Shown here: piece by piece, positions 1-10,135 of the stretch
How the letters are laid out: each line of letters starts with the position of its first letter
Numbering within the stretch: position 1 is the first letter of the stretch
Translations under genes and position numbers: made by a program
Notes under the pieces: generated by a model
Databases searched by the model: none
What the model was told of the DNA's origin: nothing
What the model saw: the letters and a program-made list of their open reading frames with translations, nothing else
Assembly: GCA_016219225.1 (NCBI GenBank)
Contig: JACRBX010000048.1
Span: 11,952 to 75,951 of the forward strand
DNA from: Deltaproteobacteria bacterium
Lineage (GTDB): Bacteria > Desulfobacterota > RBG-13-43-22
Direction: 5' to 3'
DNA length: 64,000 bases

Positions 1-1891
1 CATCAAAAGCATCGAGGAATACCAAAAAATCTATAACTGGTCGGCGGAGAATACCGAGGAATTCTGGGCCAGGATGGCCGGGGAGCACCTGACCTGGTAC
101 AGAAAGTGGGACAAGGTCTGGGACTGGGATTTTTATAAACCCTCTGTCCAGTTTTTTGTGGGCGGCAAATTAAACGCCTCCTACAACTGCCTGGACCGGC
201 ACCTGGGTTCCCCGCTGCGCAACAAGGCGGCCCTCATCTGGGAAGGGGACCTGGGGGACTACAAGACCTATACCTACCAGCAGCTCTATACCGAGGTGAA
301 CCGCTTCGCCAACGTGCTGAAGAAAAACGGGATCACCAAAGGCGACCGGGTGACCATTTACCTGCCCATGATCCCGGAACTGCCGATCGCCATGCTGGCC
401 TGCGCCCGGATCGGGGCCATCCACAGTATCGTCTTCGGAGGCTTCAGCCCTTCTTCCCTCAGGGACCGGATCCAGGACTGCCAGTCGACCCTGGTGATCA
501 CCGCCGACAACGGCCTGCGGGGAAACAAACTGGTGCCCTTGAAAACCAACGCCGACGAGGCCCTCAAGGAGTGCCCTTTCGTCGGGAAGGTCATCGTGGT
601 CAACCGGGCCGGGAAGACCGAAATGCAGACCGGCCGGGATCTTTGGTGGCACGAACAGATGAAGGCCCCGGATATCGGCAATTACTGCGAACCGGAGGTG
701 ATGGACGCCGAGGACCCCCTGTTCATTCTCTATACCTCCGGCTCCACCGGCAAACCCAAAGGGGTGCTGCACACCACCGGCGGCTATCTGCTCTATACCA
801 ACCTGACCTTTAAGTGGATCTTCGACTATCACGAGGAGCTGACCCATTTCTGTACGGCCGATATCGGCTGGGTGACCGGGCACAGCTACATCGTCTACGG
901 GCCCTTATCGGCCGGGGCCACCAGTCTGATGTACGAAGGCATCCCGACTTATCCCAATGCCGGCCGGTTCTGGGATATTGTAGACAAACACCAGGTCAAC
1001 ATCATCTATACGGCCCCCACAGCCATCCGGGCCCTGATGCGGGAGGGGACGGACTGGGTCACCAGGCATGATCTGTCTTCGCTGCGATTGCTGGGTACGG
1101 TAGGTGAGCCCATCAACCCCGAGGCCTGGATGTGGTATTACAAATATGTCGGGAAGGAGAAGCTGCCCATCGTAGACACCTGGTGGCAGACCGAGACCGG
1201 CGGGATACTGATCACCCCCCTGCCCGGGGCCATGACCCTCAAACCCGGTTCGGCCGCCGGGCCTTTTCCTGGCATATTCCCCAAGGTGATCAAAGAAGAC
1301 GGCTCGGCGGCCAAGGCCAATGAGGGGGGATATCTGATTATCGAAAAGCCCTGGCCCGGTATGCTGCGGGGCACTTACGGCGATCCGGAAAACAAGCGGA
1401 TCAAGGAAGTCTACTTTTCCCGGTTCCCCGGGATGTATATGACCGGTGACGGGGCCAGGGTGGACCAGGACGGTGACTACTGGCTCCTGGGCCGGATCGA
1501 CGACGTCATCAACATTTCCGGACACCGTCTGGGAACGGCGGAAGTCGAGTCGGCCCTGGTCAGTCACCAGTCGGTGGCCGAATCGGCCGTGGTCGGCTTT
1601 CCCCACGAGATCAAGGGTGAGGGCATTTATGTCTTTGTAACCTTGAAAGAGGGCTTTGTCCCTACGGATGAATTGAAGAAGACCCTGGTGGCCCATGTCC
1701 GCAAGGTGATCGGACCCATTGCCTCACCGGACAAACTGCAGTTTACTTCGGGGTTACCCAAAACCCGTTCGGGAAAGATCATGCGCCGGATCCTGCGCAA
1801 GATCGCCCAGGGCGACGTGGAGGAGCTGGGCGACGTCTCGACCCTGGCCGATCCGAGCGTAGTAGGGAGCCTGGTTAAAGAGAGATTATAG
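1..1891 (+). CDS. acs: Acetyl-CoA synthetase (AMP-forming), 5' end cut by window edge
   Basis: The reading frame is open from position 2 ([29 protein letters not shown]...), matching the Acs N-terminal region. AMP-binding motif [12 protein letters not shown] and C-terminal [11 protein letters not shown] are present; stop at 1889-1891. Confidence 0.9.
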
Positions 1892-2060: not shown

Positions 2061-2186
2061 ACATCGATTTTAAGGGTTTTTTTACTTACTTTGAGCTTTC
2101 AGCTTTGAGCTATTTTCGCAATAAAATACCCGGGGGCCCGCTAAGGAAAAGCGGCGCCTCGCCAGGTCTTCATCAGTGGAGGGACC

Positions 2187-2381
2187 ATGCCTGACAGTTC
2201 GCAGATCCAGAAAACGCGGAAAAAATCGCCATTTAAAAAGACCCCACCGGAATCCCGGCAGGAGCCCCTTTCTCAGGAAAAACAGAGAAAGCTCAAAGAA
2301 TTGGATGATTATATCGAAAGTGTCCTCCAGGAGGCCGGTGAAGATTTCTTAGATCGTTTCAAACAGGTCGAAGGGGAATAG
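2187..2381 (+). CDS. Pup/UBact-like small protein modifier candidate (64 aa, C-terminus ...FKQVEGE)
   Basis: SD GGAGGGACC precedes the ATG. Disordered basic N-terminus, then an acidic helix LKELDDYIESVLQEAGEDFLDRFKQVEGE that resembles the Pup ligase-binding region and ends in Glu. The stop is 2 nt before the PafA-like gene. Confidence 0.55.
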   Translation: MPDSSQIQKTRKKSPFKKTPPESRQEPLSQEKQRKLKELDDYIESVLQEAGEDFLDRFKQVEGE

Positions 2382-2382
2382 G

Positions 2383-3858
2383 TTGCGTCACAGGATCTTC
2401 GGAACCGAAAACGAATATGCCCCTTTTGACCATAACCAGACGGCAACGCCCCAGGTCCCGCTATCCAACAGGGGTTGGCCCGAGGATCAAGGGGAATTGG
2501 CCGCCGGCCTGATCGAAGGCCTTCAGGGGTGCCAATACCCTCGGGCCGGAGAATTTTTGGGCAACGGTGGCCGATTGTACCTGGATCGGGGCGGGCACCC
2601 GGAATACGCTACCCCGGAGTGCCGCACGGTAAAAGACCTGGTGGCTCATGAAAAGGCCGGGGACGTCCTTATCCAGGCACTGGTGGAGAAGGTGCGCTCC
2701 CAACAACCCCACAACCGCCTCCATGTATACAAGAACAATTGCGATTCTTATGGCCACACCTATGGCGGCCATGAGAATTACCTGGTCACTTCCCTGGCCA
2801 TGAAGCATCTCGATCGTCTCGTCCCTTTCCTGGTTACCCGCCAGATCTATACCGGTACGGGCAAGATCATGACTTCCCCGCTCTGCAGCCTTCCGGCCTT
2901 CCAAATCAGCCAGCGGGCCGATTTTTTCGACGCAACCTTTTCCGACCGGACCTCCGAGACCCGGGGCATCATCAACATCCGTAAACGCGAAATAGCCCGG
3001 CCCGGAGAAAACCAGCGCCTGCATATCATCGTGGGCGACAGCAACATGTCCCAACCGGCCCTGGCCCTCAAAATAGGAACCACGGCCCTGATATTGCGGC
3101 TGTTGGAAGAAGAGGCCCTGGGCGAGGTCTTGGCCCTGGGCGCACCGGCCCAGGCCATCAAAGCGATCTCCCGTTCTTTGAAGGCCCCGGTGGCCATCCG
3201 GCGTCAAGGGCGGACCTTGCAGTACACGGCTTTAGAGGTCCAATCCCTGTATTTGGAAAAAGCCCTTCGATTCTGTGCCCGTCCGGGCACCGACCCCGAA
3301 GAGATCCGCTGGCTGGGCCTCTGGGAATATGTTTTGAAGGCCCTTAAATTTTTGGAAATCTCTCAGTCCGAGATGCTTCTTATCAACGACCCGGGAGAAT
3401 TGAAAAGAAAAATCGACTGGGTACTTAAACTCTGGCTCCTCAGCCGCTCCCGGTCCAAGGGTGCCGATGATCGGCAATTGAAACTCCTGGATCTGATATA
3501 CCACGACCTGGACCCTGCCTCCGGGCTCTTTGAACGTTGTCAGGCCCTGGGGCTGGTAGACCGGCTTGTGGACGAGGAGCGCATCCGACAGGCCCGGCGC
3601 AATCCTCCTGCGGACACCCGGGCCAGGCTGCGGGGCCTGATCATACAAAAAGCTTTTCATCAAAACGTGGACGTCCAGGTGGAGAACTGGGAAAGCATCC
3701 AGGTCCGGGCCCATCATCGTCGGGCCGGGATAAACCACCCTTTCCGCAACCTTACCACCGCGATGAACAAACTGGGGATCCGTCTGGATGACCCCTTCCA
3801 GGGAGAAAATCCCCAGGCCCTGGAGGAACTGGAACAATTTATTTTGGCCTGGGGCTGA
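2383..3858 (+). CDS. Pup-ligase/deamidase family protein (PafA/Dop-like, carboxylate-amine ligase)
   Basis: Motifs shared with PafA/Dop: N-terminal RIFGTENEY, GGRLYLDRGGHPEYATPEC, GGHENYL, LVPFLVTRQI, RLHIIVGDSNMS, DTRARLRG. No long Dop-loop insertion is apparent. Confidence 0.85.
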   Translation: MRHRIFGTENEYAPFDHNQTATPQVPLSNRGWPEDQGELAAGLIEGLQGCQYPRAGEFLGNGGRLYLDRGGHPEYATPECRTVKDLVAHEKAGDVLIQALVEKVRSQQPHNRLHVYKNNCDSYGHTYGGHENYLVTSLAMKHLDRLVPFLVTRQIYTGTGKIMTSPLCSLPAFQISQRADFFDATFSDRTSETRGIINIRKREIARPGENQRLHIIVGDSNMSQPALALKIGTTALILRLLEEEALGEVLALGAPAQAIKAISRSLKAPVAIRRQGRTLQYTALEVQSLYLEKALRFCARPGTDPEEIRWLGLWEYVLKALKFLEISQSEMLLINDPGELKRKIDWVLKLWLLSRSRSKGADDRQLKLLDLIYHDLDPASGLFERCQALGLVDRLVDEERIRQARRNPPADTRARLRGLIIQKAFHQNVDVQVENWESIQVRAHHRRAGINHPFRNLTTAMNKLGIRLDDPFQGENPQALEELEQFILAWG

Positions 3859-3864
3859 TAGACT

Positions 3865-4581
3865 ATGGATGGTCCGGATAAAAAAATCGTAAATATCAAT
3901 AGAGACCTCGAACGCAGCCGGGTGCGTCACGTCGTGATCGGCCAGTATATGCTGCACGAGGTCCAGCACCATTCCTTGCAGCACACCGGTTCTCCTTCCC
4001 TGATCCCCAAGGCCCACAGCCCGATGGATATATACAAGTGCCTGCATCAGGGGGAATTCGGCGTGGGCCACAGCCTGGATTATCCCAAACGGTTCCGGCA
4101 GCGTCTGGTCCGGGAAACGATGGAAGACGAGCCGGAAGAAGGCGCCCAGGAACCGGCCTTGGAAGACATCTCGGCCGAAGGCCGGGTACTGCGGGTGAAC
4201 CTGCGCGCTTTTAGAGGCCTTTTTAATCACGAAATAGACAAGCGTATCGACCAATTGGCCCAGGTCTGTTTTGAATCCGCGGAAACCGCCCGAGGGAGTG
4301 AGACCCGTTTCAGGGAAACGCTGGCTTTTTTTAAGGACCTCAATCAGGCCAATGAATTGAGGATCGGAAGGCAGTCCTTCGCCTTTCCCGGAGAAATGGT
4401 CGATCGATTCCTGCTCGAGGTCCATGATTTAACCCGACGTCTGGGGCAGGTCCCGATCTTCGGTCATTCGCCGGACTACCGCCGGCTCAATCATCCGGCC
4501 TACCGGGTAGTAGATCGGACGGTCCTGGAAAAATCGCCTTTGGCCGGACTTTTGAAAAAGACGCCGGAACCGACCAGGTAA
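3865..4581 (+). CDS. Hypothetical protein (238 aa), co-operonic with Pup-ligase homologue
   Basis: Begins 7 nt after the PafA-like stop; codon usage is coding-like. The overlapping minus-strand ORF 3232-4425 is antisense to the PafA-like gene and is taken as spurious. Confidence 0.5.
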   Translation: MDGPDKKIVNINRDLERSRVRHVVIGQYMLHEVQHHSLQHTGSPSLIPKAHSPMDIYKCLHQGEFGVGHSLDYPKRFRQRLVRETMEDEPEEGAQEPALEDISAEGRVLRVNLRAFRGLFNHEIDKRIDQLAQVCFESAETARGSETRFRETLAFFKDLNQANELRIGRQSFAFPGEMVDRFLLEVHDLTRRLGQVPIFGHSPDYRRLNHPAYRVVDRTVLEKSPLAGLLKKTPEPTR

Positions 4582-4594
4582 CGGAGGAAGATCC

Positions 4595-4906
4595 ATGGAT
4601 ATCAAAACCGCGGCGGCGGAGTTTCACGGGGCCTGTCTGGCGATTCTGGATCAACCAGAACTCCCAGCAGAATTAGCCTACCGGATGCAGCGGATCATAG
4701 ACCGCTTCCTGCCGGTGGCGGATAAGATGTATCTCAAGACGGTAAAAGGCTTCCAAACCGTTTTGCAGTGCACCCAGCAGGCCAGGACCATTACAGATCA
4801 CCTGCCAGCCGGCCGGTACCTTTTCTATCGGCAGGTTACGGATCTGGAAAATACCCTGGAGGAACTCCTCAAGGCGGCCTACGCATTTCGCATCAAGGCC
4901 GGCTGA
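4595..4906 (+). CDS. Hypothetical protein (103 aa)
   Basis: ORF 14 nt after the previous stop on the same strand; no recognisable motif. Confidence 0.45.
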   Translation: MDIKTAAAEFHGACLAILDQPELPAELAYRMQRIIDRFLPVADKMYLKTVKGFQTVLQCTQQARTITDHLPAGRYLFYRQVTDLENTLEELLKAAYAFRIKAG

Positions 4907-5067
4907 AATGAACCTGCCTTGGATTGTGGAGTTCGGAGTTCAAAGGAGTTTTCGATTGAAGAGTTAAGATCTAAGATATACGGATTTGATTTTGACTTCC
5001 TTCGACATTCATCATTCGTTATTCGATATTCGATATTCGCCTGTTTTATAAGGGTTCAAGAGAAAAT

Positions 5068-6900
5068 ATGGAAAATTCAAGCACTTCCTTCCAGGCCCTT
5101 TTACTGCAACCTCCCCCGGGAGATTTGACCGGCCCTTATCCGGCCCTGGGCTATTTGAAATCCTACGCCGCTCACCAGGGATTTTGCGTGAAAGTCAAAG
5201 ATCTGGGGATCGAAGCCCTGGATCATTTAACCCGGCCAGACCGGATCGCCCCCCTTCTCGACCAGGCCCGATCCATGCTTGGAGGGCTCAAGGCCCAAAA
5301 AGCCTTGGATGCCTCGGCACAGCAGCATTACCGCTTTTTATTGGCCGCCCTGGCGGCCGGACGACCGCCTCAATGGTTCTCCACCAACCTGGAAATTTTC
5401 CGGGACCCCGACCGGTTTTATGACTATCGGGAATATCAGAAGGCCCGGCTGGCCTTGAATGCCTTTTTCGGTCTGCTCAGCGCCGTCCATTTTCCCACCG
5501 TTCTGACTGCCGCCGAGTATCCCACGGCCGGCAGTCTCAAGACCTGGCCGGCTATCCTGGAACATTGCCAGGCCAGGGTCAACCCTTATGTGCATTACTA
5601 CGAAGAGGTCCTCTTCCCCCTGTTAGCCGCCCATCCGCCGGCCCTGGTAGGCATCTCCATGGTCTTTGCCAACCAGTCGGTCCAGGCCCTGGTCCTGGGC
5701 CGCCTGATCAAGAGGCACTTCCCCCAGATCCAGGTGACCATGGGAGGCGCCTATCTTTCCCAATGGGTCATGCTCCTGGAAGGTGCCCGGCTGGAAGAAT
5801 TTTTTCAGTGCACCGATTCCATCGTTATCGGGGAAGGAGAAAAACCCTTTGCCCGGCTGCTGGGAAAAATTAGCAACGGCCAGGGGCTGGAGGCGGTCCC
5901 AAATTTAGTCTATCGCCAGCGGTCAACGGGGAGGATCCATCGGTCGGCCGCTTTTGAATATACGGATATCGCTCACCAGCCTCCCCCTGATTTTTCCGAT
6001 CTCGACCTGGCCGCCTATTTGAGTCCCCAGCCTGTTATCCCCTACTGCATCAGCCGGGGTTGTTATTGGGGGAAATGTGTCTTTTGCCAGAACCGCTACG
6101 GGGACCGGCAAGTTCGCCGCTATCAGGTGGTTCCCGTAGATAAAGCCATCGAAGAACTATCGGCCTTGGCGGACCGATACGGCTCGAACCATTTTAATTT
6201 CAGTAACGACGTGATCGATCCGAAATATCTGAAGCGGTTCAGTCAGGCGGTCGAATCCTCCGGCCGGAAGTTTGTCTGGAATACGGATTTACGGGCGGAG
6301 AAGGCCTATACCAGGGATGTCTGCCGACTGATGGCCAGGGCCGGGTTAAACGCTGTGGCCATCGGGTTTGAAAGCGGCTGCCAGAAGGTCCTGGAAGCCA
6401 TGGATAAAGGCAATCGGGTGCCTACCACCCGGCAGGTCTTGAAAAATTTATACCAGGCCGGGGTGGCCACCCAGGCCATGGGCTTTTTTGGATTCCCCGG
6501 AGAAACGGAAGCAGACGGAGAAAAGACCGTTCGGTTTTTGGAGGAAAACATCGCCTGTATTTCTTATTATGTTATGGGTCTTCTGCTGGTGCTTCCCGGC
6601 TCCAGGATGTACGAAGACCCCCGGCGGTTCGGGGTAACCGCTCTCCGATACGAAGGCAATTCCCTGATGACCCCGGAGCCGGTCTGGAAATCAGATATCC
6701 GTATGTCCATGGCCGCGGTCAATCGTCTCTATCAGCGGTTGAGCCGGCTGGAAGCCCTTTATCTCCTGGATGACTATCCCTACGTGGGAGGCTTATCCAC
6801 CAATCATGGTTTTCTTTATTTTAAGTCCGGACCGGACATCCTCAAGGTCCTGCGAAAGCAGGAAAAGGAAGGAACCCATCAACAGATGCTGGTTGCTTGA
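5068..6900 (+). CDS. B12-binding domain radical SAM protein (cluster motif CYWGKCVFC = CX4CX2C)
   Basis: N-terminal Rossmann-like B12-binding region (ALVGISMVFANQ...VTMGGAYLS), then SRGCYWGKCVFCQN and a radical SAM barrel. 610 aa. Confidence 0.8.
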   Translation: MENSSTSFQALLLQPPPGDLTGPYPALGYLKSYAAHQGFCVKVKDLGIEALDHLTRPDRIAPLLDQARSMLGGLKAQKALDASAQQHYRFLLAALAAGRPPQWFSTNLEIFRDPDRFYDYREYQKARLALNAFFGLLSAVHFPTVLTAAEYPTAGSLKTWPAILEHCQARVNPYVHYYEEVLFPLLAAHPPALVGISMVFANQSVQALVLGRLIKRHFPQIQVTMGGAYLSQWVMLLEGARLEEFFQCTDSIVIGEGEKPFARLLGKISNGQGLEAVPNLVYRQRSTGRIHRSAAFEYTDIAHQPPPDFSDLDLAAYLSPQPVIPYCISRGCYWGKCVFCQNRYGDRQVRRYQVVPVDKAIEELSALADRYGSNHFNFSNDVIDPKYLKRFSQAVESSGRKFVWNTDLRAEKAYTRDVCRLMARAGLNAVAIGFESGCQKVLEAMDKGNRVPTTRQVLKNLYQAGVATQAMGFFGFPGETEADGEKTVRFLEENIACISYYVMGLLLVLPGSRMYEDPRRFGVTALRYEGNSLMTPEPVWKSDIRMSMAAVNRLYQRLSRLEALYLLDDYPYVGGLSTNHGFLYFKSGPDILKVLRKQEKEGTHQQMLVA

Positions 6901-6950
6901 TATTGGGGTAGAGATTTTATCCAGCATCCCGCATCCAGCATCCAGCCCTT

Positions 6951-8975
6951 CTAATGCTCGCTGCTGAGGTGAGGCAGGTGACCATAGCCGGTTTGAATCT
7001 TGTACAGGATACGCAGGAGTTCAGCGCAGGCAATGGGTTTGCGCACCACCCGATCGACCCCGCAACGGGACAGTTCGGCCGGATCAAGCTTTTTATCCAC
7101 ACCGGTATAGAGCAGAAAAGGGGTTTTCGGACGTCCGGTCTGTCTGGCGTAATCCAGGGCGGCCCGCCCGAGTTCCAGTCCATTCATCCCGTCCATGCCA
7201 AAATCACACAGGATCACATCATAACGGTCCCCATAAATAGAGGCCAGACCTTTCTCGGCTGTACCGGCGGTCGTAAGATCGACCGGGGAATCTTCAAAGA
7301 ACATCTCCATCATCTTGAGAATATTCTTTTCGTCGTCGATGAGTAAAAATTTTATTTTTGTTTCGTTTGAGGTTCGTTCGCCGGGGATATTTTCCTTCTC
7401 TTCTATGGCCGGAGCCTGGGACCGGGGCAGGATGATGGTAAAAGTGGCCCCTTTCCCCGGACCGCTGTTAACAACCATGTCCCCCTGGTGTTTCTTAATG
7501 ATGCCATAACTGGAAGAAAGGCCCAGACCGCTGCTCTTTTCCCCTTTGGTTGTAAAAAAGGGCTGGAAAAGACGTTGCCGGTTTTCTTCTAAAATCCCTT
7601 CCCCCGTATCGCTGATCGACAAAAGAACATGTTCCGGTCGGTTCTCGGGAGAGATCGTCAGGACACCCCCTTTCGGCATGGCCTCCAGGGCGTTTTTGAT
7701 AAGGTTCACCAGAACTTCGTACAGTTCGGACGGATTACCCCTGACCCGGCCTCCCAAAGGCCGGATATAGTTCAGACGATATTTGCCCGGGTTGGCCGGA
7801 TTGGCCCAGAGTGAAGAGGTGAGCTGCACGGCTTCGGATACCAGGTCACCCAGATCGAACACCTTGGCCTCTTCGATTTTATCGGTCTTGGCTGCGGTAA
7901 ATTCCTTGATCCGCCGGACAATATCGGCTCCTCGATGGCAGGCTTCCATCATGGTCAGAATGGCCTCGCGGCTTTTTCGGATTTCTCCGGAAGCCAGCTT
8001 GTTCAGGGCCGCTTCGCCGCCCCCCAGGATCATTTGAAGAAGGTTATTGAAATTGTGGGCCACGCCGCTGGCCATTTCCCCAACGGCCGACAACCGTTCG
8101 CTTCGAATCAGTTTTTCTTCCATCCGTTTCCGGGCGCTCAAATCCCGGGCAACGCTCAGCACCGCCGGTTTGCGTTGAAAATCGATAAGCCGCGAATGAA
8201 ATTCATAGGGGATGATCTCACCGGATTGGGTAATTGTTTCGAGTTCAAATTGAACCGTTTCTCCGGAGCGGACTTTTTCGCCCATACGCCGCAAAACCTT
8301 TAATTGCGTCGGCCGGACAATGTCGGTAAAGGTCAGGTTAAGCAACTGCTGGCGGGTGTATTGCAGCCGGAGGCAGGCCACGTCGTTGACCTCCAGAAAG
8401 GCTCCCTGGGAATGACTGATAAAGACCGGATCGATGACGTTATCAAACAGTTCCTTATAGCGCAGCAGCCCTTCGTTTTTTTTACGTTCGGTGATATCCC
8501 GGGCCAGGGCTACAAAACATTTTTTCTCCTGAACCTCCACAACCATGCCGGTGACTTCGGCATCGACCAGATCCCCGTCCCTTTTGCGAAAGCTTCTTTC
8601 TTGAATGTGAACAACGCCCTCGGCCACTGCCTTGCGAATATTCTCGATGACCCCTTCGGCACCCGGGGCGAGAATATGTTCGATCCCCATGGTCAGGAGC
8701 TCGGCCCGGGAATAGCCCAACCATCGCAGGGTAAAAGGATTGCAGTCCAAGATGCCGTGGCTCTCCATATCCAGGATATAGATGGCCTCTGGGGCATTTT
8801 CTATAATGGCCCGGAAGTTGGCTTCCGAAGTACTGACCTTTTCCAGGACTTGATTGAATTCAGCGGTGGCTTCCTTGAGCAGGTTGGTCAGGATGTCCGA
8901 CTTACGCTCAGATTGCTCCAGAAGCTCTTCCAACTCCTGGATCCGTTGTTCGAGGCTTTGGATCCTTTCCATCAT
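6951..8975 (-). CDS. Hybrid sensor histidine kinase (coiled-coil, PAS, HisKA/HATPase, C-terminal receiver)
   Basis: H-box SGVAHNFNNLLQ, ATPase motifs DTGEGI...GLGLS, and a C-terminal receiver domain LLIDDE...DVILCDFGMDGMNGLEL. Confidence 0.85.
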   Translation of the reverse strand: MMERIQSLEQRIQELEELLEQSERKSDILTNLLKEATAEFNQVLEKVSTSEANFRAIIENAPEAIYILDMESHGILDCNPFTLRWLGYSRAELLTMGIEHILAPGAEGVIENIRKAVAEGVVHIQERSFRKRDGDLVDAEVTGMVVEVQEKKCFVALARDITERKKNEGLLRYKELFDNVIDPVFISHSQGAFLEVNDVACLRLQYTRQQLLNLTFTDIVRPTQLKVLRRMGEKVRSGETVQFELETITQSGEIIPYEFHSRLIDFQRKPAVLSVARDLSARKRMEEKLIRSERLSAVGEMASGVAHNFNNLLQMILGGGEAALNKLASGEIRKSREAILTMMEACHRGADIVRRIKEFTAAKTDKIEEAKVFDLGDLVSEAVQLTSSLWANPANPGKYRLNYIRPLGGRVRGNPSELYEVLVNLIKNALEAMPKGGVLTISPENRPEHVLLSISDTGEGILEENRQRLFQPFFTTKGEKSSGLGLSSSYGIIKKHQGDMVVNSGPGKGATFTIILPRSQAPAIEEKENIPGERTSNETKIKFLLIDDEKNILKMMEMFFEDSPVDLTTAGTAEKGLASIYGDRYDVILCDFGMDGMNGLELGRAALDYARQTGRPKTPFLLYTGVDKKLDPAELSRCGVDRVVRKPIACAELLRILYKIQTGYGHLPHLSSEH

Positions 8976-10135
8976 CCAATTTCAAGAAGACTCAAGGTAA
9001 TCGTTTCGTTATGGAAATAATTCGGCCCTCCGGCCGAGATCCGGCAGTATTCACCGTAGGTATAAAATCCGATGATGGGAACCGACAGACCGATTTCAGT
9101 CCGAACTCTTTGGATTTCTTCTTCGGTCCGGCGACCCAGAACGATCTTCCGGGCCATGCAGGAATAGCAGAAGGCTATAGACGGGGAATGGCCGCTCAAG
9201 GCGGATTTGGCCAGACCGGTGGCCTGATCGGCGGCCTCCAGGATGGAGGAGACATCACCACAGGTCAGATGGACCAGGGCCCCTTCGGTGATCTCCCCGG
9301 CAAAAGTAATGGAACGCTCCTCCCGGTTGACGGCCATTGTGGCCCGGATCAGATGGTAGTCCTCCTGGCCATCTTCCCCGCACCGTTCCAGAAGACCGAG
9401 CGGATATTCTACCCCAATGACCGGCAGCTTTTCGGCATGACGCCCCAGAAAGCGTTCGTAGACGTTCAAAGCCGGTTCACCATTCAATTCGTAGAGCACA
9501 TTACCCCGGGAACGGGTAACCCGTTTGGCCAGCCCGATCGGCGACCAGCCGCTGCGTACCCCTGTTCCAAGACGGAAATCCCCATAAAAGGCGATGCCGC
9601 AAAGGGTATCCGTGTAGACCTGATCGCCGGCAAATTGCAGGGTCTTCAGAAATTTGCCGTTGTCCCCGGCGGTTCCTCCGGCGATGGGGATATGCCCGCC
9701 CAGGACAGAGGTGATACCCTTTAAGATGGCGCAGCCGTCTCCGGTCAGTCCGTCTGAAAAAATCTGTATATACCGGGGTGGTTTGGAGAAGGCCCCGGCC
9801 AGCCGCCGGCCAGCCCCTTCGCTGTCCTGACCGAGCCCCTGTACCGTGGCGATTTCAAAATCGATCTGATCGGTGGCGATACCCCCCAGGACGACCGAAT
9901 TGGTGCTCAAGCCGTCTCCCGAGATCTCACCGTCAGTGGTACAACCCACCAGATTCTGACTGCCCAGGCTTTCCCCGATACCCTTAAGCAATTCCGGAAT
10001 CCCTGAAGACGGCGCAGAGAATAACCAACAAGCCTTGGGGGTTTGCCCCAGCTCCCTTTCCAGGGTCTGGCCCAGTCGATGGCCCAGGTGCCGGGAAGGT
10101 GACTCGTTGGATCGGATGGTTGCTGCCTTAAACAT
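8972..10135 (-). CDS. FIST domain sensory protein
   Basis: About 387 aa with an architecture typical of FIST N- and C-domains; its stop overlaps the kinase start (ATGA). Confidence 0.7.
   Translation of the reverse strand: MFKAATIRSNESPSRHLGHRLGQTLERELGQTPKACWLFSAPSSGIPELLKGIGESLGSQNLVGCTTDGEISGDGLSTNSVVLGGIATDQIDFEIATVQGLGQDSEGAGRRLAGAFSKPPRYIQIFSDGLTGDGCAILKGITSVLGGHIPIAGGTAGDNGKFLKTLQFAGDQVYTDTLCGIAFYGDFRLGTGVRSGWSPIGLAKRVTRSRGNVLYELNGEPALNVYERFLGRHAEKLPVIGVEYPLGLLERCGEDGQEDYHLIRATMAVNREERSITFAGEITEGALVHLTCGDVSSILEAADQATGLAKSALSGHSPSIAFCYSCMARKIVLGRRTEEEIQRVRTEIGLSVPIIGFYTYGEYCRISAGGPNYFHNETITLSLLEIG

Follow-up and report, generated by a model that had tools for sequence, protein, structure and literature searches.

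The small open reading frame at positions 2187 to 2381 of a 64-kb stretch of deltaproteobacterial DNA (64,000 nucleotides, referred to below as the window) raises two questions: whether its product, which ends in Glu-Gly-Glu, is a Pup and whether such a tag is conjugated by a single ligase homologue independently of Dop, as had been proposed in a sequence-only reading of this DNA. The best explanation overall, which we regard as likely, is that the frame encodes a divergent Pup belonging to a pupylation cluster conserved in the Desulfobacterota, that this system probably operates independently of the proteasome, and that the window covers no more than the cluster's 3' half.

The small gene and its relationship to Pup

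The pup-like modifier gene (2187 to 2381, forward strand) extends from an ATG at 2187 to a TAG stop codon at 2379-2381 and encodes a PupE-type protein of 64 residues, MPDSSQIQKTRKKSPFKKTPPESRQEPLSQEKQRKLKELDDYIESVLQEAGEDFLDRFKQVEGE, whose C-terminal end reads FKQVEGE in the translated frame. The description of this frame in the sequence-only reading, including the noncanonical KQVEGE terminus, was accurate. The last four codons specify V61 (2367-2369), E62 (2370-2372), G63 (2373-2375), and E64 (2376-2378). Within the E-G-E codons (2370 to 2378, forward strand), E62 stands where canonical GG[EQ] termini have their first Gly, and both G63 and the terminal Glx are kept. A Shine-Dalgarno-like GGAGGG (2178 to 2183, forward strand) is found in the sequence 3 bases 5' of the ATG. 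The protein is basic and rich in Lys over its N-terminal half and acidic and helix-forming over its C-terminal half, and part of the chain is of low complexity.

A word-indexed search of a collection of 5.8 billion proteins retrieved 11 homologues displaying 52 to 100% identity. A profile search of a library of 1.84 billion proteins retrieved nine representatives, all belonging to the same family and none of them a canonical Pup; such an outcome is expected for a profile of 64 positions in a database of that size. Pattern scans of GTDB species genomes yielded 22 loci, and those of JGI metagenomes yielded 16. Every named host among the ~40 related loci belongs to the Desulfobacterota, the carriers including Desulfobacteraceae, Desulfosarcinaceae, Desulfatitalea, Desulfatiglandales, Desulfomonilaceae, Syntrophobacteraceae, and "Ca. 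Desulfacyla." All intact copies, in the ~40 loci and in the database homologues, end in [KR]Q[VI]EG[EQ]. The frame reads as a real protein-coding gene under purifying selection, since its differences from eight orthologues fall mainly on third codon positions (e.g., 30 to 40 changes at position 3 versus 13 to 18 at position 2) and since synonymous changes exceed nonsynonymous changes over the C-terminal 30 codons. The database annotation of the protein is "hypothetical protein."

Comparison with the Pfam Pup model (PF05639) afforded 15.4 bits (E = 0.036), short of the gathering score (27), with an alignment that ended before the last three residues of the window protein. No NCBIfam model matched at E values up to 1. 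Searching all PDB chains with a profile of the family placed three chains of Mycobacterium tuberculosis Pup (3m91, 3m9d, and 7px9) at the top, with E values of 0.006 to 0.009, followed by a match at 1.6; the alignment reached the final residue for the first two chains and ended at residue 61 of the Pup-like protein for 7px9. The relationship to Pup claimed in the sequence-only reading was borne out by the Pup model, although below its threshold (E = 0.036), and by the profile of the family, the only credible matches of which in the PDB are Pup (E = 0.006). Aligned without gaps to M. tuberculosis Pup, residues 39 to 64 are identical at 11 of 26 positions, including L39, I43, V46, L47, E49, E52, D53, F54, Q60, and G63. 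Relative to the same sequence, the family is richer in Lys (8 to 15 residues versus 3) and the window protein is less acidic (net charge of -1 versus -12). With these matches and the synteny of the cluster combined, the assignment of the protein as a remote but genuine Pup homologue is well supported.

The residue at position -3 is indeed Glu rather than Gly, and this Glu is invariant across the family, which consequently lies outside the narrow actinobacterial definition of the terminus (Gly-Gly-[Gln/Glu]). The requirement for Gly-Gly put forward in the sequence-only reading was too strict: actinobacterial Pups do end in GGQ or GGE (2012 review, PMC3511204), and the published C-terminal signature of the Pup family as a whole is G[EQ], not GG[EQ] (Iyer et al. 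2008, PMC2588565), a signature that the window protein displays. In the family, G63 is invariant and the terminal residue interchanges between Glu and Gln from species to species (roughly 25 loci with Glu versus 17 with Gln, some contigs being redundant). The two endings are scattered over the family on an invariant EG, and this terminal toggle is typical of canonical Pup. Full-text literature searches yielded no mutational data for the di-glycine of Pup. Glu at position -3 is a fixed, lineage-specific feature rather than a defect, the family-wide need being G[EQ] only. As for the last residue, the terminal Glu would be ready for ligation, as in PupE organisms and as had been proposed.

A divergent enzyme of the Pup_ligase family

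The gene for the presumed Pup ligase (2383 to 3858, forward strand) starts with a TTG one base past the pup stop codon and encodes a divergent enzyme of the Pup_ligase family composed of 491 residues, labeled "proteasome accessory factor A/PafA2 family" in the database. In most loci, 1 to 9 nucleotides separate the pup stop codon from the ligase start codon, which is TTG or GTG. This arrangement suggests translational coupling, with the output of ligase kept deliberately low relative to that of the tag.

The enzyme matched the Pfam Pup_ligase model with an E value of 5.4e-112 and remained below both NCBIfam cut-offs, with 336 bits for PafA (TIGR03686; cut-off of 551) and 303 bits for Dop (TIGR03688). 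A phmmer search of PDB chains provided almost the same E values for Dop (1.9e-65) and PafA (4.7e-65). The AF2 model of the enzyme matched the folds of both Dop and PafA with TM scores of 0.77 to 0.89 (normalised to the length of the target), and Foldseek returned 4b0r and 4bjr, both near an E value of 1e-32. Sequence identity was 38% with Corynebacterium glutamicum PafA and 34% with Acidothermus cellulolyticus Dop, two proteins that share 41% with each other. By these comparisons, the window ligase lies at an equal distance from PafA and from Dop.

We compared the residues of the enzyme with those of four PDB chains used as the PafA and Dop references, as was done for the identity values. The catalytic, nucleotide-binding, and metal-binding residues shared by PafA and Dop are invariant (E9, E11, Y66, D68, E74, H130, R178, R200, R212, and H214). 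At the positions that discriminate ligases from hydrolases, taken from Hecht et al. 2020 (PMC7947786), the enzyme is PafA-like at F58, L67, G70, A76, and S187 and by an extra residue after D68, and it is Dop-like at A55, P78, and F181. It does not contain the Dop loop, and this analysis upheld the earlier statement that the adjoining ligase lacks that insertion. D-R-G-G-HPEYAT and S-D-R replace the Dop motifs DH-AHPEYS and GLE, respectively. Most of the alpha-loop is unique, differing from those of both PafA and Dop, and four positions (R69, R189, K201, and R202) hold an invariant basic residue in this lineage where PafA and Dop have neutral or acidic ones. We infer that the enzyme is the ligase of the system and that it originates from a divergent lineage. 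Its divergent alpha-loop and its equal distance from PafA and Dop mean that the acceptor or the chemistry of the reaction could differ. A relationship between the extra positive charge of the ligase and the extra negative charge at position -3 of the tag is speculation.

The ligase and the Pup-like protein were also folded together with AF2, as a single-chain fusion on an unpaired alignment. The ligase part was predicted with confidence (most blocks above 85) and residues 30 to 49 of the Pup-like protein were helical with a moderate pLDDT of about 80, whereas the last 15 residues had pLDDT values of 39 to 51 on this unpaired alignment. The tag was modeled as a single long helix rather than in its bound two-helix form; Pup bound to PafA and Dop forms two orthogonal helices, and the C terminus of Pup is itself poorly ordered in the crystal structure of the PafA-Pup complex (PMC8599861).

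The conserved cluster, its partner genes, and the window edge

A conserved gene order emerged from the gene tables of three contigs (L001, L003, and L004) and from tblastn searches that placed the genes of a reference cluster on all of the loci: an AmiS/UreI channel, an Amidohydro_2 protein, a SirB1-like protein (Transglut_core2 plus TPR_9), a Zn-ribbon protein of ~110 residues, an AAA ATPase, a Pup_ligase paralogue of ~520 residues, Pup, a second Pup_ligase paralogue of ~491 to 509 residues, an orphan protein of ~227 to 245 residues, and a B12-binding radical-SAM enzyme. The genes preceding that of the ATPase (amide channel, Amidohydro_2, SirB1-like transglutaminase/TPR protein, and CHC2 Zn-ribbon protein) were observed in L001 (3232-6421) and in most loci.

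The paralogue encoded upstream of pup scored 461 bits against the NCBIfam Dop model and 332 bits against PafA, and its E values against PDB structures were 2e-112 for Dop and 2e-59 for PafA. It contains a loop that aligns with the Dop loop, as well as the Dop motifs DH-AHPEYS and G-L-E, features by which it is clearly recognizable as Dop. The ATPase passed the cut-off of the NCBIfam pup_AAA equivalog (602.7 versus 504.75 bits) with an end-to-end match and was closest to M. tuberculosis Mpa (E = 1e-145, the next family being at 8e-99). Its C-terminal ends (...VPDKLK and ...PGEALE) do not contain the GQYL tail that mediates docking to the proteasome, and a survey covering ~20 kb per locus revealed no Proteasome Pfam domain, either in the three gene tables (those of L001, L003, and L004) or among the window reading frames of 190 to 310 residues. 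Because the ATPase is devoid of a GQYL/HbYX docking tail and the cluster is devoid of 20S genes, the outcome of tagging is probably independent of the proteasome.

The orphan conserved protein (3865 to 4581, forward strand; 238 residues) is always encoded directly 3' of the ligase gene, within a few bases, and was found in 26 of 26 loci mapped by tblastn and in every further locus reaching far enough. None of its 150 homologues is named or contains a Pfam domain, and comparison with PDB sequences gave no match. Its AF2 model was of high confidence (pLDDT of 90.6, pTM of 0.87), and a Foldseek search of the PDB with this model revealed no fold match (best E value of 0.6, TM score of 0.16), so that the predicted structure may be that of a new fold or of a new metalloenzyme. 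The invariant residues include H31-E32-x-x-H35-H36, H51, D55, K58-C59-x-H61-Q62, H69, C135, H201-S202, and Y213-R214. The His and Cys residues among them possibly form the metal site of a metal-binding enzyme. A role as a protease would be only a guess, since the HExxH motif is not located mid-helix in the AF2 model, unlike in zincins.

A conserved reading frame of 103 codons (4595 to 4906, forward strand) is linked to the cluster in some genomes and matches no Pfam family. By tblastn, its product is 74% identical to that of L006, the nearest relative of the window locus, and 33 to 39% identical to those of L012, L021, and L022, in which the frame is located 3' of the radical-SAM gene; in the window, it is located 5' of that gene. 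Conservation of the cluster ends with the gene for the B12-binding radical-SAM enzyme (5068 to 6900, forward strand; 610 residues), a protein that matched the Pfam Radical_SAM model (9e-17) and, weakly, the B12-binding model. Among NCBIfam models, the RiPP maturation radical-SAM C-methyltransferase gave its best match, with 130.7 bits versus a cut-off of 281.85, followed, far below the respective cut-offs, by other B12 radical-SAM enzymes that methylate peptides or proteins. The length of this enzyme varies, from 610 residues here and 599 to 630 in a few relatives to 712 to 741 in most loci. Given this difference, the lineage of the window lacks a C-terminal extension of ~130 residues.

Two arms of an inverted repeat bracket the block formed by the pup, ligase, orphan, and 103-codon genes. 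The left arm (1892 to 1952; 61 nucleotides, containing TCGAATA-like heptamers) lies between the acetyl-CoA synthetase gene and pup, and the right arm (4986 to 5046; 61 nucleotides) lies 5' of the radical-SAM gene; the two arms are 82% complementary. The sequence CGAATATCGAATA occurs four times in the window, versus 0.03 expected, is confined to the two arms, and has a copy in L006. The repeat could serve as an array of binding sites for a regulator, or it could be a small element of the mobile or repeat type. PADLOC assigned none of the Pup, ligase, Dop, and orphan proteins to a defense system and returned only generic matches for the AAA and Zn-ribbon proteins.

In the pupylation system that we propose, the Dop orthologue would deamidate the terminal residue of the Pups that end in Gln, the window ligase would conjugate the tag, and the Mpa/ARC orthologue would engage Pup at its central, helix-forming part and unfold the tagged protein. 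As the ATPase has no docking tail and the cluster has no 20S genes, the outcome would probably be independent of the proteasome, as in corynebacteria, and the two conserved downstream genes, encoding the orphan and radical-SAM proteins, may take part in it. The strict linkage of these two genes is a hint of chemistry unlike that of known pupylation. A bolder version of the proposal, which we advance tentatively and hold to be distinctly less than an even chance, is that the cluster specifies a third kind of pupylation system. The acidic residue at position -3 would have coevolved with a ligase lineage branching outside, or very early within, the PafA/Dop pair and equipped with four extra basic residues in its active site. 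The 20S proteasome would be functionally replaced by a His-rich metalloprotein of new fold and by a B12 radical-SAM enzyme, possibly a peptide C-methyltransferase, and these two proteins would act on the tag or on its conjugates by modifying or processing them.

In a rival reading, the small protein is not primarily a protein tag but a carrier or scaffold peptide. A small amine or peptide would be ligated to its C-terminal Glu, the radical-SAM and His-rich proteins would modify the adduct or the carrier itself in a manner reminiscent of RiPPs or pearlins, and the product would be set free by the Dop-like amidase. The ranking of the RiPP maturation C-methyltransferase and of other B12-dependent methylating enzymes as the best matches of the radical-SAM protein would fit this scheme, as would the strict synteny of the radical-SAM and orphan genes with pup and the ligase gene, the conserved amide channel and amidohydrolase upstream, and the four unusual basic residues in the active-site loops of the ligase. 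However, the radical-SAM scores are far under the family cut-offs, and Foldseek comparison with the PDB detected no RiPP recognition fold in the orphan protein. Moreover, an Mpa orthologue above the equivalog threshold fits the unfolding of proteins, not the synthesis of small molecules, and the profile alignment shows that the small protein keeps the hydrophobic pattern of Pup (L36, L39, I43, V46, and L47), which corresponds to the helices that bind Mpa and the ligase. We consider the carrier scheme improbable.

The proposal of a minimal system that would need no Dop, with a single ligase homologue conjugating a Pup born with a terminal Glu, stems from what the window displays: its Pup ends in Glu, and tblastn detected in the 64 kb one gene of the Pup_ligase family, no second paralogue, and no Mpa. 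Of the cluster, the window carries only the genes for Pup, the ligase, the orphan protein, the 103-residue protein, and the radical-SAM enzyme. The probable explanation lies at its left edge. The window starts inside an acetyl-CoA synthetase gene (acs; 1 to 1891, forward strand), the 5' end of which is cut by the edge and which, in this lineage, is an insertion separating dop from pup. Positions 1 to 1894 are 96.6% identical to positions 8096 to 9989 of L006, a locus with 87 to 97% nucleotide identity to the window. There, acs occupies positions 8010 to 9989, its start being located 5' of the matched stretch, and a Dop-like gene (6406-7956) directly precedes it, together with the gene for the ATPase. 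In this lineage only is acs present between dop and pup, the spacing being 20 to 170 nucleotides in all other loci. Since the window begins within the gene that dop and mpa precede in L006, the appearance of a single ligase is very probably an artifact of the window edge, and dop and mpa are most likely located just left of the window in the source genome. The claim of a single ligase homologue was not supported: in 40 related loci, a Dop-like paralogue with a Dop loop is encoded directly before pup, and Mpa before it.

The link drawn between the Glu ending and the absence of Dop fared no better, as Pups ending in Glu and Pups ending in Gln both co-occur with Dop. Every locus reaching far enough upstream, among the ~40, has the Dop-like paralogue before pup, including 18 of 18 such loci with a Glu ending, the sole exception being the decayed locus L018. 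The presence of Dop whichever the ending argues that Dop would have two functions here, deamidation and depupylation, and that a Glu ending does not denote a Dop-free system. We consequently regard a Dop-independent system as very unlikely. The decayed copy of the cluster in L018 (7105-8134; Desulfobacteraceae bacterium RAAP-1) contains a pup without its 5' part and start codon and a ligase gene aligning only from residue 205, and it is devoid of the ATPase and Dop genes.

UBact, a conjugation system with a Pup-analogous tag, was reportedly found in Gram-negative phyla by Lehmann and colleagues in 2017. Assigning the window protein to UBact, a family of Pup-like tags from the Nitrospirota, the Verrucomicrobiota, and related phyla, would agree with a Gram-negative host, a small protein with an x-G-[EQ] end, and adjoining homologues of PafA, Dop, and Mpa. 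Against it, detectable similarity was confined to actinobacterial Pup, both with Pfam and with the profile against the PDB, and the NCBIfam library, which may hold no UBact model, gave no match at E values up to 1. In addition, the UBact terminus, R-[ST]-G-[EQ] after a basic helix, is unlike FKQ[VI]EG[EQ], and UBact loci carry proteasome subunit genes, whereas none were seen in the ~20 kb surveyed per Desulfobacterota locus. We regard such an assignment as very unlikely. Finally, a chance reading frame or noncoding spacer at 2187 to 2381, suggested by the short, partly low-complexity frame and an annotation as merely hypothetical, has a negligible likelihood and is already refuted by the ~40 conserved loci, the codon-position bias, and the invariant C-terminal motif.

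Significance and comparison with known systems

The preferred reading, a divergent Pup in a conserved, proteasome-independent cluster, would bring strict anaerobes, both sulfate reducers and syntrophs, into the range of pupylation-type tagging; in these organisms, annotation pipelines label the product of the tag gene a "hypothetical protein." The family offers a natural experiment indicating that the end of the tag needs only G-[E/Q], not G-G-[E/Q], and a ligase lineage at equal distance from PafA and from Dop bears on the evolution of the ligase/hydrolase pair. The conserved, proteasome-free context and the two partner genes could reveal what purpose pupylated proteins serve where there is no proteasome. 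The main interest of the observation is the conserved system that it flagged, more than the C-terminal residue itself.

The reference for comparison is the actinobacterial Pup-proteasome system (Pup, PafA, Dop, Mpa, and PrcAB in M. tuberculosis). The likenesses include a tag of 64 residues of disordered type, with a penultimate Gly, a terminal Glu or Gln, and a conserved C-terminal half (VLxExxEDFxxxFxQ). They extend to the dop-pup order, an equivalog-level Mpa, the Dop loop in Dop, and the shared catalytic residues of the ligase. In contrast to the actinobacterial system, the tag of the Desulfobacterota has Glu at position -3 and a Lys-rich N-terminal half, the ligase is as distant from PafA as from Dop, prcA and prcB are absent from the loci, Mpa lacks the GQYL tail, the orphan and B12 radical-SAM genes follow the ligase gene, and the hosts are anaerobic.

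UBact resembles the present system in that only the penultimate Gly and the terminal Glu or Gln are kept and in that homologues of PafA, Dop, and Mpa are linked to the tag. UBact is not known to have been reported from the Desulfobacterota.

A further comparison is with the proteasome-less pupylation of corynebacteria, which have kept the ATPase without the proteasome-interaction motif and have no 20S genes (review, PMC3511204). There also, pup directly precedes the ligase gene. Unlike the Desulfobacterota protein, the corynebacterial Pup ends in GGE; the corynebacterial PafA is bona fide, no radical-SAM or orphan partners have been described, and the hosts belong to another phylum.

Outside the Actinobacteria, Pup and Pup-ligase loci without linkage to proteasome genes have been described in the deltaproteobacterium Plesiocystis and in Rhodopirellula, in which the ligases contain an insertion of four transmembrane segments and membrane proteins are linked (Iyer et al. 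2008, PMC2588565). These loci share with ours the location outside the Actinobacteria, the lack of proteasome linkage, and the G[EQ] signature; the window ligase differs from their ligases in being of the soluble type, with 491 residues and no insert, and the clusters of its relatives add Dop, Mpa, the orphan protein, and the radical-SAM enzyme. Sporadic homologues have also been reported in Proteobacteria (Hecht et al. 2020, PMC7947786). Full-text literature searches retrieved no paper on pupylation in the Desulfobacterota, and the tagging cluster is apparently undescribed. What is new here is the combination of a pupylation core with a fixed EG[EQ] end, a ligase of a third type, the lack of proteasome linkage, and two orphan partners.
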